A stretch of 64,000 nucleotides of DNA from Escherichia coli (GCA_902500055.1 GCA_902500055.1_4131.1); one strand, 5' to 3'; numbered from the stretch's first letter, positions 28,399-43,468 are shown. The notes: generated by a model from the sequence alone, not told the origin. Translations and numbers: made by a program.

Positions 28399-29304
28399 AT
28401 GTTACCTTTTGTTAGAATGTTTGATTATGGGAATGAAGCTCCATTACCAGCCCCAAATGGTGGTATACGAACTCAATTTACCACATCACCAGTACCTTCA
28501 GCACGAAATAACTTTGGTTATACGTATGATGCATCAAGAAATACTGCTTATATATTTGGTGGTATAATGAATACTTCGAACCAGGATAATCAGTTATGGA
28601 GTTTTAATTTAAATTCTAGAATATGGGTACAATTATCATCACCACCAGTATCCACCTATGGAAGTGCATTGTGTGCCTATCAAGGAAAAATATATTTGTT
28701 CGGTGGTTTAGGTGCAGCGAATGTTGCTAATAATAATTTTTATGTATATGACATAAGCTCTGATACATGGACACTGAATAATACAAGTGTTGGCAAACCT
28801 AACCAGGCAGTATATAGTAAGATGATTACTACAGGGGATAAGATATATTTGTGGGGTTCACCGTCTAATACTGCATTATATAGTTATACGCCGAGTACTA
28901 ATACATGGGCATCGTTAGGTACTACTGGGAATACAACAAACAATGGTGGTGGTGATATGTGCACTGATGGTACTTACATATATTTTACAGGACAAGGATC
29001 TACTCCTGCACAAAAATATCACATAGAGAGTGCGGTTTGGTCAAGAATGGCAGCAGTTGGTGGAGCTAACCCTAGTAAGATAATTTACAATAGATATGAC
29101 AAAGGTATATATGCAGTATCTTATGGTGCATTAAATTTATTAAAATATGATGCCGAGCAAAACAAATGGATACCATTAGCTATCAATACAACGTTGAGTA
29201 ATAGTACTGGTGCATTATTTGGCTCTAATAATAGTGCTGAAATATTTTACGTACTTGGTTACGACAACGGGACACGTGTTAATACGCAGTATGTTTTTAA
29301 ATAA
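28399..29304 (+). CDS. family C member 1: conserved N-terminal peptide + Kelch-like beta-propeller
   Basis: AGGAGGAAAT-ATG; N-terminus MLPFVRMFDYGNEAP; six blades with IY.FGG/W pattern. Confidence 0.8.
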   Translation: MLPFVRMFDYGNEAPLPAPNGGIRTQFTTSPVPSARNNFGYTYDASRNTAYIFGGIMNTSNQDNQLWSFNLNSRIWVQLSSPPVSTYGSALCAYQGKIYLFGGLGAANVANNNFYVYDISSDTWTLNNTSVGKPNQAVYSKMITTGDKIYLWGSPSNTALYSYTPSTNTWASLGTTGNTTNNGGGDMCTDGTYIYFTGQGSTPAQKYHIESAVWSRMAAVGGANPSKIIYNRYDKGIYAVSYGALNLLKYDAEQNKWIPLAINTTLSNSTGALFGSNNSAEIFYVLGYDNGTRVNTQYVFK

Positions 29305-29316
29305 TTTGGAGGAAAT

Positions 29317-30466
29317 ATGTTACCTTTTGTAAGAATGTTTGATTATGGGAATGAAGCACCTACCAACTCTGGGCGTTTTAAAATATATTCCAGTGATTCT
29401 ATGTATCTTCATGATACTTATACTGATAAGTTGTATGCATCTTCTGCGACGAATTGGGGTACTGGTACAGGTGTAGCATCGAGTAAATTTATTCTTTGTG
29501 CGGAGAATGTTAAACGAGTTCTATTGGAAGATAACAGTAGTGATTGTCAATTGTATGAAGAGAAAGGTACTGGAAAAGTTTTTATCACTGGTAACACGAA
29601 GGCATTCACTGGTGTAACTGATAGAAAAACTTTGTGGACGGACTGTACTACGTGGATAACATCAAGTGGTATTAATGTTTCTGATATAAAATACATGAGT
29701 AGTTTTTATGATATGAAGGTGAATTTGATAACAAACGATGGTACATTGTATTGTTGTGGAACTAACAATATATCGAACATATCATCATTTGGTGATGGCA
29801 CAAACATTAATTCTTTTAACACATTCAAAAGAGTAGATACTATAACTTCGGTTAAAAAGGCAGTTGGTAACATTTATTTGCGAGAAGATAATACTTTATG
29901 GGGTTGTGGTTTTAACTATTACTACCAGTTGGGTACTGGTAATCAAACTTCGATTACTGGGGTGACGATGATTTCTTCGGATGTTATAGATTTTGATGTA
30001 AGTTATCAGAGTACATTTTTTTATCAAATCGGATAATAATTTGTACGCATGTGGGAAGCAGTACGGAGCACAATATGGTAATGAATTTGGCACAGGTGGA
30101 ACATCTACTAGTACTGATATTCAATACAAGACTCCTACATTATTGAGTACAGGGGTATATGGTGTATATGCATGTGTTGCTAACATGGCATCACATATTG
30201 TCAAAGCAGATGAAGTTCTATATGCTTCTGGATCGAATGGGTTTGGGCAATTAGGTGTTGGTAATAATAATAATCAGTACTCCTATACTCCTTCATATAC
30301 TTCGTTTAATACTTCGTGTAATTTGGTACGCACTCCATCTGGTTCACTTATACTTACTGACACTTCGAAGTTATATTATTCGGGTGCTTCATTTGTAGTA
30401 ATGGGTGGTAGTGCTGGACAGAACGTTCTTAATTATACCGAAGTCGATATGTCATTTGTGCAGTAA
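29317..30466 (+). pseudogene. family C member 2, interrupted by frameshift at T7 tract (pseudogene, phase-variable or sequencing error)
   Basis: ORF 29317-30036 (MLPFVRMFDYGNEAP...) continues in +1 frame as 30041-30466 with RCC1-like repeats; T7 run at 30016-30022; a T6 run would fuse them into about 383 aa. Confidence 0.6.
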
Positions 30467-30475
30467 ATTAATATA

Positions 30476-30502
30476 CCAGTACTTGATACTGGCTTTTTTT
30501 GA
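30476..30502 (+). terminator. family C cassette terminator hairpin
   Basis: CCAGTACTTGATACTGG followed by T7. Confidence 0.6.
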
Positions 30503-30534
30503 TTAAATATAGTATAATGAATAAAGGAGGAAAT

Positions 30535-41002: not shown

Positions 41003-41037
41003 GATTAAATATAGTATAATGAATAAAGGAGGATTTT

Positions 41038-42243
41038 ATGTTACCTTTTCCAAGGATGTTAAAATACGCAAATAAAATGAAAGTTCCTGAAGTGAAAGAA
41101 ATCTTTATGTACAATGGTTATAGTGCGTCAGTTATTCCAGCAACAGCACTCTTACTATTATATAAAAATGGAGACTTAATGGGTATAGGTGGAACTAGTT
41201 CACAAAACTATGGATTCGGAAATGGTGTACCTAATGCGAAAGTAAAAGAGTGGGCTTTAATATACCAAAATGTAAAACGTTTTAGAACAGCCCAAGGTTC
41301 TTTTAATTTAATCCAAACCGAAGATAATAAATTTTATTACAGTGGCGTAGGTAGAGCTATTGGTACAGGATTAAGTACTGTCAGTACTTATACTGATTGT
41401 ACTTCATATTTTACATCAGTATTCAATGCAACACAATTGTCGCAAATTAAGGACATTCAAATTGTAGGGGAGGGTATTTTTGTTTTACTTCAAAATGGTA
41501 CGCTATATGGAATGGGGGCCAATACACAGGGATATTTTGGTAATAACACAACCACAAGATTATCAACATTTACTTCAATTAATACGAATGTGGATAGTGT
41601 AAAAACAGGTTCAAGTGCAGTGATTGTGCAGAAAATTGATAAAACACTTTGGGTCACTGGTCAAAACACATGGGGTTCACTTGGTATAAGTAATGGTGAA
41701 ACTAACATTAGAGTATGGACACAAATGGGTGCATTAGCCAACAATACTGTTATACATTATGAACTTGGTGGGAGTGCATCATGGGTTGTATCTAAACACA
41801 ACACGAATAATACATATACAGTTCGTGCAAGTGGGATTCAATCGGAAGGTAACTTGGGTAATAGTTCAGCCGCTTCATCAGGGACAGTATTATCTACAAT
41901 CTCCACTCTACCAATATCAGATAATATGGAAATGAAATCAAATTCATTAACATATGGTGGGCTTACGGTTAAAACTAACAATTCACTTTATATGTGTGGT
42001 ATAAACACATATGGTAGGCTCGGTCGCGGTAATACCACATCAAGTACTACATTTGTAGTTCCAGTTGATGCACCTAAAGTTGGCAGCATCGAGTTATTCT
42101 GTCCAAGTGAATGTACAAATGTGTATATGGATAATCAAGGGGATGTGTATTTGAGTGGCTATATCCCACAAGCAGCAGGGACAACAGTTTCTGATTACTA
42201 CACTAAATTCCAATTATATCAAATACCCAGTCGTGGTATATAA
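41038..42243 (+). CDS. family C member 12: N-terminal peptide + RCC1-like beta-propeller
   Basis: MLPFPRMLKYAN; repeats LYGMGANTQGYFGNN, LYMCGINTYGRLGRGN. Confidence 0.8.
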   Translation: MLPFPRMLKYANKMKVPEVKEIFMYNGYSASVIPATALLLLYKNGDLMGIGGTSSQNYGFGNGVPNAKVKEWALIYQNVKRFRTAQGSFNLIQTEDNKFYYSGVGRAIGTGLSTVSTYTDCTSYFTSVFNATQLSQIKDIQIVGEGIFVLLQNGTLYGMGANTQGYFGNNTTTRLSTFTSINTNVDSVKTGSSAVIVQKIDKTLWVTGQNTWGSLGISNGETNIRVWTQMGALANNTVIHYELGGSASWVVSKHNTNNTYTVRASGIQSEGNLGNSSAASSGTVLSTISTLPISDNMEMKSNSLTYGGLTVKTNNSLYMCGINTYGRLGRGNTTSSTTFVVPVDAPKVGSIELFCPSECTNVYMDNQGDVYLSGYIPQAAGTTVSDYYTKFQLYQIPSRGI

Positions 42244-42250
42244 AAAAAAT

Positions 42251-42278
42251 GCCAGTATTTTGTACTGGCATTTTTTTG
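42251..42278 (+). terminator. family C cassette terminator hairpin
   Basis: GCCAGTATTTTGTACTGGC followed by T7. Confidence 0.6.
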
Positions 42279-42315
42279 TCCTAAATATAATAACGATTTA
42301 CATTTGGAGGATACA

Positions 42316-43468
42316 ATGCTACCCTTTGGAAGAATTATCACATCATCAAAAAAGAACATACAACCTTCTGTAACAAAAATAGCTTCATCTGATACAACAG
42401 TTTTTGCCCTTATGTCAGATGGTACGTTGTACAGTAGAGGCTCTCAAGAGTTTGGGCAAATGGGTATAGGTAATATTATAACACAAACCAAATGGGTTTT
42501 GTGCAATACAAACGTAGAAGATATATGGGTGCGGGTATGAGTCAACCTTAATAAAAAAGAAAGATAATACGATGTGGTACGCTGGAAATGGTGCATCATT
42601 CGGATTATCAACTGATAAGTCAACAACATGGGCTTCTGCAAAGATAGTGTTTGATAGAATAACCGCCCTAGGCAAAACAATAAAACAAATTGCAGTTAGT
42701 GCAGGTGCATTAAGCGTATTATGCACAGACAACACTATATGGAATACGGGCTATGGTAGTTATGGTCAACTGGGAAATGGTAGAAGTACCGATTCACTTT
42801 CATCATTTGTACAAGGAACAGTACCTACTGGAGTAACACCATCCAAAATACTGGCAAATTTTCTTATGCAAGGATTTATTGGAACCGATGGGAGATTGTA
42901 TTATACTGGTGCAATATCAGGCGTAGGTACAACCGACATGACGTTATATTCAAAGTACACGTTATGTTCTCAAATAACTAATACCTATACGGTGAAAGAT
43001 TATACAACAAACTCAAGTTACTTCGCTTTTGCTATAGCAAGTAATAATAGTAGTAATAAATTATTTGCATATCATGGTGGTGGACAATACTTTGGTCAGT
43101 TAGCAAATGGTTCTACATCACAAACATATATTTCGTTAAGACAAACAACACAAGCACCAGGTGATATAATAAGAAGCAGTGTGGGTTATTCATATTTTTC
43201 TAATCATATTATAACTTCATTAGGTGTTTACGCAACTGGTTATAACACAGGCGATAACGCAGGTCAATTAGGTATAGGTACACAAACAGATGTCTCAGCC
43301 TATACCAAATGTGTACTACCAATAGAGATGAATATGAATAACGTATATGTTACAGCAACTTTATACAGAACTTACTTAACCGATGGTATACAAATTTACA
43401 GTACTGGACAATATGTTACAGACGGTGGAGTTGCCAGTACTGTATTTGTCAAAGATTCACCATTTTAG
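42316..43468 (+). pseudogene. family C member 13 (diverged), split by in-frame UGA/+1 frameshift (pseudogene or recoding)
   Basis: ORF 42316-42540 (MLPFGRI...EDIWVRV) stops at UGA 42538-42540; skipping one nt continues as ESTLIKKKDNTMWYAGNG in ORF ending 43468, matching spacing in member 7. Confidence 0.55.

Follow-up and report, generated by a model that had tools for sequence, protein, structure and literature searches.

A stretch of 64,000 nucleotides recorded under Escherichia coli (GCA_902500055.1_4131.1; the window) contains a tandem array of plus-strand genes whose products share a nearly invariant N-terminal peptide of 12 residues, here called the tag, joined to variable bodies. The evidence tilts, on balance, towards a docking role for the tag, by which interchangeable adhesin-like modules would be displayed on the virion. 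The region resembles, in a mosaic fashion, the Asteriusvirus jumbo coliphages (121Q, PBECO4, phAPEC6, G17, CMSTMSU and others); piecewise identity to their records is 83 to 98%, and coverage of the region by any one record is below 80%.

All six frames of the whole window were scanned with the pattern M-[LIV]-P-F-x-R-[MLIV]-x-x-Y-[GA]-N. Twelve plus-strand open reading frames (ORFs), lying within 28399–42243, start with M-L-P-F-x-R-[ML]-x-x-Y-[GA]-N; the matches, at 28399, 29317, 30535, 31712, 32912, 34115, 35296, 36537, 37800, 38609, 39797 and 41038, each open an ORF, and the scan found no tag elsewhere in the 64 kb on either strand. A degenerate DNA version of the pattern matches 12 times, against 0.00 expected from 100 shuffles. 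A thirteenth start at 42316, MLPFGRIITSSKKN, retains MLPF and continues as GRIITSSKKN, a variant tag. The first-pass annotation of the region, made from its sequence, had described 13 genes sharing the dodecapeptide; 12 of them do, whereas the thirteenth has the variant, and members 2 and 13 are frameshifted. Ten columns are invariant in an alignment of 20 RCC1-type sequences, and half of them fall within residues 1–12; in most RCC1 members the tag is followed by a semi-conserved linker, I-A-P-x-P-x-I-K-K. The array forms a plus-strand island flanked on both sides by minus-strand blocks of small genes. Its members are listed below, with lengths in amino acids (aa).

28399..29304, + strand: member 1, tag MLPFVRMFDYGN and Kelch beta-propeller, 301 aa
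29317..30466 (29317-30036, then 30041-30466), + strand: member 2, tag and RCC1-like body, +1 frameshift
30535..31644, + strand: member 3, tag MLPFVRMVKYGN and RCC1-like propeller, 369 aa
31712..32839, + strand: member 4, tag and RCC1-like propeller, 375 aa
32912..34105, + strand: member 5, tag MLPFARMVKYGN and RCC1-like propeller, 397 aa
34115..35224, + strand: member 6, tag and RCC1-like seven-blade propeller, 369 aa
35296..36465, + strand: member 7, tag MLPFVRLFDYGN and RCC1-like propeller, 389 aa
36537..37727, + strand: member 8, tag MLPFARMMNYGN and RCC1-like propeller, 396 aa
37800..38537, + strand: member 9, tag MLPFGRMVKYGN and TNF-like/polyglycine-rich 'brush' body, 245 aa
38609..39718, + strand: member 10, tag MLPFGRMLKYGN and RCC1-like propeller, 369 aa
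39797..40966, + strand: member 11, tag and RCC1-like propeller, 389 aa
41038..42243, + strand: member 12, tag MLPFPRMLKYAN and RCC1-like propeller, 401 aa
42316..43468 (42316-42540 / 42572-43468), + strand: member 13, variant tag MLPFGRIITSSKKN and RCC1-like body, split by a frameshift

Conservation of the tag was analysed by Nei–Gojobori counts on 69 tags. At the seven conserved positions, compared between genera, the proportion of synonymous differences (pS) is 0.59 and that of non-synonymous differences (pN) is 0.076, a ratio of 0.13; in the eight codons following the tag both proportions are saturated and the ratio is about 1.0. The ten paralogous tags of Erwinia phage Hallingskeid have a pS of 0.62 and a pN of 0.069. 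As the residues are kept while the synonymous sites are saturated, selection acts on the peptide. The tagged genes of Hallingskeid abut with only a ribosome-binding site (RBS) between them and have no promoter cassette of the kind described below for the window; since genomes of this type keep the tag, the cassette cannot account for its conservation. The possibility that the conservation is a by-product of promoter or RBS sequence, or of gene conversion, is rejected as the main cause on the grounds of the synonymous sites and the cassette-less genomes, although such effects are a contributing factor in Asteriusvirus.

The tag is widespread among related phages. A 22-residue tag query had 498 tblastn matches, distributed over 61 phage records. 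Every one of these records belongs to the RaK2-like jumbo myoviruses, namely Asteriusvirus; Mimasvirus GAP32, CBB and XbC2; Eneladusvirus; Serratia phage BF; Salmonella phages Munch, 7t3 and SE_PL; Klebsiella phage fENko-Kae01; and Erwinia phages Hallingskeid and Kaldavass. RaK2 and K64-1 (Alcyoneusvirus) are not among these 61 records. The loci that were read contain 10 tagged genes in Hallingskeid, 8 in XbC2, 5 in fHe-Yen9-04, at least 7 in CBB and 16 in Munch; that of GAP32 contains 2, or 4 when GAP32_530 and GAP32_531 are included by homology. In other phages the tag also heads Laminin_G_3 (ConA-like lectin; LamG) bodies and other bodies of 200–280 aa, and it is shared by four body types in no fewer than five phage groups (Asteriusvirus, Mimasvirus, Eneladusvirus, the Munch group and Hallingskeid). 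The architecture proposed in the first-pass annotation, an address tag followed by a variable module, holds and extends well beyond the window, with RCC1, Kelch, LamG and glycine-rich bodies.

The tag is strictly N-terminal. A profile of it compared with 1.84 billion representative proteins gave 54 matches, nearly all from residue 1 or, where the start codon had been called too far upstream, from a few residues in. The same profile had no meaningful match in the PDB, and a search of IMG/VR with a degenerate tag pattern returned only 121Q and a 378,379-bp contig with the length and the tagged genes of CBB, and no new diversity. Starts annotated too far upstream were also seen in phAPEC6 gp002 (434 aa), JP4_581 (418 aa) and ORFs of the window called from TTG or MNKGGN, and such over-long calls have hidden the common N-terminus in databases. 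The phAPEC6 annotation omits three full-length tagged genes (locus L001: 2434-3543, 6063-7253 and 7325-8059).

Glycine-rich homologues outside the RaK2-like phages (P0022-P0121) begin with M[LIF]E[ML][ML] instead of the tag, which means that the tag was added to a family that already existed. The M-[LIF]-E-[ML]-[LM] N-terminus, exemplified by PVP-SE1 gp19 (MFEMM...), may serve other phage groups as a comparable leader for attachment; no parallel tag array was found around the gene of the PVP-SE1 glycine-rich homologue. The tag has different alleles in different lineages (MLPF..RM, MIPF..RI and MLPFPQL). A second class of tag, MLPFPIISNT[NK], occurs side by side with the YGN class in XbC2 and fHe-Yen9-04 and may address a different site. 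The variant tag of member 13 resembles this class. Hybrids between the two classes, such as MLPFSIISHYGN and MLPFSIINEYGN, occur in fHe-Yen9-04 and XbC2.

All four tagged body types are binding folds, and the tagged proteins are near-neutral and rich in S, T, N and G. Member 1 matches the Pfam Kelch model PF24681 (Kelch_KLHDC2_KLHL20_DRC7) with an expect value (E) of 2.9e-26 and 92.6 bits (cut-off 50), and is also above the cut-offs for Kelch_1/3/4/6; its homologues, 37–38% identical, are found in Hallingskeid and as CBB_550. Members 2–8 and 10–13 are RCC1-like according to Pfam (PF25390/PF00415/PF13540), the whole-domain RCC1 model being below its cut-off and the repeat models above theirs in several members. 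The AlphaFold model of member 6, with a predicted local distance difference test (pLDDT) score of 86.4 and a predicted template modelling (pTM) score of 0.87, is a seven-blade propeller, for which a Foldseek search of the PDB gave UVR8 as the best match (E 3e-22, template modelling (TM) score 0.79), followed by RPGR, HERC and RCC1. Member 9 has no Pfam match of its own, but its HMMER homologues carry the glycine-rich domain PF21722, and its AlphaFold model (pLDDT 91.5) comprises a TNF-like sandwich and stacked glycine-rich motifs. The Kelch, RCC1-like and glycine-rich assignments of the first-pass annotation were correct; its statement that the bodies diverge completely was not. The 11 RCC1-type members, member 13 included, are paralogues: in alignment A1, which comprises members 3–8 and 10–12, the bodies are 22–28% identical to that of member 6, and members 3 and 10 are 63% identical to each other.

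In the AlphaFold models the tag lies outside the fold. Residues 1–15 of member 6 and 1–10 of member 9 have a pLDDT below 50 and no secondary structure; the first strand of member 6 begins at residue 20, about eight residues after the tag. A role of the tag as the closing 'velcro' strand of the propeller is ruled out, as it is disordered, precedes the first strand and heads non-propeller bodies too. The body of member 9 matches solved receptor-recognition domains located at the tip of an N-terminally docked fibre. At the sequence level it has no match to any solved chain. The polyglycine-rich receptor-recognition domains compared with it are those of Pam3 gp24, S16-type gp38 and the Bxb1 tail wing brush gp33; in member 9 the docking alpha-helical domain of Pam3 gp24 is swapped for the 12-residue tag.

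Tagged proteins are present in the virions of several relatives. The virion table of phAPEC6, obtained by electrospray ionisation tandem mass spectrometry (ESI-MS/MS), includes gp003, 005, 006, 007, 009, 010, 549 and 551, all named 'DNA condensation protein' and about 40 kDa in size, with 1–5 peptides each (PMC7247149). The N-terminal tag was confirmed for gp003, 005, 006, 007, 009 and 010; in that table, gp009 is the orthologue of member 10 (99% identity) and gp010 that of member 11 (98%). CBB_536, 537, 548, 549, 551, 552 and 553 are virion proteins by mass spectrometry (MS), with a coverage of 9.5–50.7% (PMC5259590), and the tag was confirmed on the first six of these. GAP32_001, 530 and 531 are also MS-positive, and the CBB supplementary table gives no RaK2 homologue for any tagged protein (PMC5259590). 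Among the MS-confirmed structural proteins in this table, the homologues of CBB_225, 226, 029, 118, 149, 321 and 534 are common to CBB, GAP32 and Asteriusvirus and missing from RaK2. Liquid chromatography–tandem MS (LC-MS/MS) of JP4 virions identified JP4_577, JP4_581 and JP4_582 at low abundance, about 1e6 versus about 1e8 for the top proteins (PMC12648861); JP4_577 is a near-identical orthologue of member 12. Virion association, raised as a candidate in the first-pass annotation, is thus borne out by the MS of tagged proteins in phAPEC6, CBB, GAP32 and JP4.

Multi-copy RCC1-like genes have been noted in 121Q, PBECO4 and phAPEC6, several of their products being found in virions by MS (PMC5259590, PMC7247149), and the prevailing published interpretation is a role in DNA condensation or in the inner body. 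The Asteriusvirus arrays (121Q genes 234-248, phAPEC6 gp001-010/549/551; also GAP32 gp001) represent the same locus and family; the searchable published accounts deal with the RCC1 copies only, as DNA-condensation candidates, and do not link them to tagged Kelch, LamG or glycine-rich proteins. The array and its virion association are therefore already published. The searchable literature on these phages does not mention the shared N-terminal peptide; as far as it shows, there is no earlier description of the tag, of its occurrence on four body types in at least five phage groups, of the selection on the peptide, of its out-of-fold position or of the brush-domain identity of member 9.

The junction between tag and body is a site of exchange. 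Orthologous bodies that are 88–95% identical bear different tag alleles, with VRMFD in the window versus ARMVK, GRMIK or ARMMN in phAPEC6, G17 and 121Q; the body of member 2, for instance, is 95% identical to that of an intact 382-aa G17 gene with a different allele. For member 10, the synonymous divergence (dS) of the body is 0.04–0.065, against 2.5–3.5 synonymous and 2.5–3.5 non-synonymous differences in 11 tag codons. Near-identical bodies with diverged tag alleles identify the tag–body junction as a recombination point. The presence, order and content of the cassettes differ between phages, as the comparison of related genomes suggested in the first-pass annotation has revealed: the order is member 5, 6, 7 in the window and 6, 5, 7 in phAPEC6, phAPEC6 has three additional genes between members 9 and 10, and members 3, 4 and 12 have no close orthologue in three relatives (phAPEC6, G17 and 121Q). 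The fast evolution that had been expected of the bodies was not observed; orthologous bodies are under purifying selection, and their ratios of non-synonymous to synonymous divergence (dN/dS), 0.03–0.38, rule out rapid evolution by point mutation. The diversity comes from old paralogy and from the gain, loss and shuffling of cassettes. Phage vB_Ec-M-J has an unannotated tagged RCC1 gene of 390 aa (98812-99984) with its own promoter-like box, about 245 kb from the main array and adjoining nrdD genes; this orphan cassette, unique to vB_Ec-M-J at the nucleotide level, suggests cassette mobility.

The intergenic cassettes of the window have a common structure, in which a terminator-like hairpin is followed by a box, TAAATATAGTATAATGAATAAAGGAGG, comprising a late-promoter-like TAAATA and a Shine–Dalgarno sequence.

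30476..30534, + strand: representative cassette, terminator hairpin CCAGTACnnnnnTACTGG and T run, then box TAAATATAGTATAATGAATAAAGGAGG, then ATG
28368, 31680, 32880, 35265, 36506, 37768, 38578, 39766 and 41006, + strand: further boxes, exact or near-exact
31651, 32847, 35228, 36470, 37734, 38543, 39733 and 40974, + strand: further terminator-like hairpins

The box occurs ten times, with none expected, and within the window is confined to the tag array. Nine of the ten boxes lie just 3′ of the hairpin and T run of the preceding gene, GCCAGTAC...GTACTGGC (alignment A3); the hairpin before that of member 1 is degenerate. Members 2 and 6 directly follow their upstream gene, member 6 beginning 9 nucleotides after member 5 with no promoter cassette between them. 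Sigma-70-type promoters are not enriched (64 found versus 79.8 expected). The TAAATA of the box is similar to ATAAATA, the consensus of late promoters published for phage CBB (PMC5259590). Each module may be pictured as a self-contained late transcription unit composed of terminator, promoter-like box, Shine–Dalgarno sequence, tag and body.

If the tag is a docking peptide, it would be a flexible leader that becomes ordered upon binding to the particle of a RaK2-like jumbo phage, at one common site. Small binding modules, most of them monomeric and variable as a set, would thereby be fastened to the virion exterior: propellers of the RCC1-like and Kelch types, LamG lectins and polyglycine 'brush' domains. 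These modules may act as accessory adhesins or host-surface binders. The shared cassette and tag would supply the homology needed for the exchange, reordering, gain and loss of modules between phages. The tail and capsid of these phages bear flexible 'hairy' fibres as well as rings or collars, all hitherto unexplained (PMC7247149). They are no more than candidate docking sites.

Several points weigh against this interpretation. MS gives virion association and not topology, and the surface location is one that we infer. Shared N-terminal leaders of paralogous virion proteins are a hallmark of capsid-internal proteins of the T4 and phiKZ type, and the inner body seen in phAPEC6 has had no proteins assigned to it. 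Nor can a propeller of 40 kDa itself make up a 'hair' of about 100 nm. Within the window the pS of the tag is only 0.23–0.30, versus 0.61 for the linker, so that some homogenisation at the DNA level, together with the upstream box, contributes to tag conservation here. The identifications in JP4 are single peptides (PMC12648861).

The tag might have no addressing function and serve instead in recognition by a chaperone or modifying enzyme, in the control of translation initiation or stability, or as a recombination handle, with the bodies themselves mediating virion association. This would agree with the near-invariance of the first 36 nucleotides and the upstream box in Asteriusvirus, where the tag pS is reduced, and with the swapping of tag alleles between cassettes, which makes the region a recombination junction. 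It is nevertheless an unlikely explanation, since other genera keep the residues at saturated synonymous sites without any promoter cassette, four unrelated folds would each have had to evolve a route of their own into the same virion, and in the glycine-rich family the tag stands in place of the native N-terminus, the counterpart of which in Pam3 gp24 is a docking element. The name under which these proteins are annotated in databases, as condensation regulators acting on phage or host DNA, relies on Pfam and PHROG matches to RCC1 repeats and has been repeated across many records and papers. The name derives from eukaryotic RCC1, the exchange factor of Ran; to our knowledge there is no bacterial Ran, and RCC1 would have no bacterial counterpart. 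The fold is a generic seven-blade binding propeller with UVR8 as its best structural match, the proteins are not basic, they are found in purified virions and the same tag heads Kelch, LamG and brush bodies, all of which makes such an activity highly improbable.

A signal that sends the proteins into the prohead core, to be packaged with the DNA and perhaps injected as effectors or anti-defence proteins, would explain a shared N-terminal leader on divergent, tandemly encoded, virion-associated proteins, and strain-to-strain variability would suit anti-defence effectors. phAPEC6 has an inner body, and its authors proposed that RCC1-like proteins take part in DNA ordering (PMC7247149). The likeness to the capsid-targeting sequence (CTS) of T4 (IPI, IPII, IPIII and Alt), pointed out in the first-pass annotation, consists in a short N-terminal leader that polymorphic virion proteins, unrelated in other respects, have in common. 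In T4 the prohead protease cuts after a Glu at the end of the leader and so removes it. In contrast, no member in the window has a Glu in residues 1–12; position 9 is D, K or N here and many residues in Munch, and the gp21-type (L/I)-x-E site is not conserved. The tagged proteins are near-neutral, not basic, and their bodies are lectin, propeller and tail-fibre-tip folds, one of them matching externally located receptor-recognition domains; the low peptide counts and abundance are ill-suited to a bulk inner body. The analogy is thus limited to the shared leader, the missing cleavage site, the folds, the charge and the abundance speaking against it, and capsid targeting appears quite unlikely.

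Docking is better compared with the anchors of phages with multiple receptor-binding proteins (RBPs), a second analogy of the first-pass annotation, such as the branched RaK2/K64-1 tailspikes, CBA120 TSP1-4 and G7C gp63.1/gp66. A constant N-terminal attachment part joined to a variable binding part is a well-known principle in phage RBPs; these too have a constant N-terminus and a variable C-terminal part, in many versions per genome that are exchanged between phages. The anchors of multi-RBP systems are folded domains on trimeric spikes or fibres, whereas the constant part here is a disordered 12-residue peptide on small, mostly single-chain propeller bodies; the analogy fits better than that with the T4 CTS but does not extend to a folded anchor. 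Judged by the tblastn search with the tag and by the CBB supplementary table, there is no homology to the RaK2/K64-1 tailspike anchors, and RaK2 has no homologue of the tagged proteins. Cohesin–dockerin pairing in cellulosomes, where one small constant plug on many modules binds a common scaffold, is a functional analogy only. Dockerins are folded modules of about 70 residues; there is no homology, and the scaffold here is hypothetical.

Two members of the array are interrupted. In member 2 the reading frame is broken at about 30016-30022, where a T7 run stands in place of the T6 implied by intact relatives. The counterpart of member 2 is intact (380–382 aa) in phAPEC6 and G17, and the extra T reflects either an error of sequencing or a slip-prone on/off site. 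The frameshift in member 13 leaves two parts of 74 and 298 aa, and the cassette upstream of it is degenerate. In 121Q the annotation shows the identical split, as genes 235/234, and the downstream ORF of PBECO4 has the same boundaries; phAPEC6, G17 and other relatives have lost about 57% of the gene by deletion. Member 13 is probably a decaying pseudogene at the end of the array, shared with relatives; a programmed frameshift is unlikely, as the gene is mostly deleted in several relatives and both its cassette and its tag are degenerate.

The neighbouring minus-strand genes also form runs. Divergent to the tag array, at 23926-28350, is a second tandem array of paralogues, about 18 very small genes (60–93 aa) with a common N-terminal M-x-K-E-(F/Y)-Y and C-terminal L-(L/I)-(I/F)-(Y/F)-R-(Y/H); the guanine–cytosine (GC) skew flips at about 24000. 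Convergent to the tag array, at 43449-45259, are a protein of about 200–220 aa and then a run of proteins of about 110–140 aa, which gave no significant Pfam match; counterparts of the latter are annotated as putative membrane proteins in CBB. Similar convergent runs of small genes lie beside the tag arrays of CBB, fHe-Yen9-04, Hallingskeid and XbC2 (loci L013 4520-8111, L005 6899-9299, L006 14240-18763 and L007 7185-10379). This arrangement may reflect functional linkage or merely conserved gene order.

A more general proposal, held tentatively and regarded as somewhat short of an even chance, is that RaK2-like jumbo phages use the MLPF tag as a universal plug, by which any tagged monomeric binding fold is shown on a common scaffold, possibly the hairy fibres or rings, with the MLPFPIISNTN class directed to a second site. 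The phages would then possess a swappable multi-adhesin coat, the modules of which travel as promoter–tag–body–terminator cassettes. Understood as docked binding modules, the tagged proteins shed a mistaken label that came from a name alone ('DNA condensation protein' or 'regulator of chromosome condensation') and is carried by dozens of jumbo-phage records and papers, and RCC1, Kelch, LamG and glycine-rich virion proteins, formerly treated apart, are united in one tagged system. This offers a handle on what decorates the tails and capsids of jumbo phages and on how binding to hosts or surfaces is tuned. If the tag suffices for incorporation, it would also provide a 12-residue display tag for the engineering of jumbo-phage particles.

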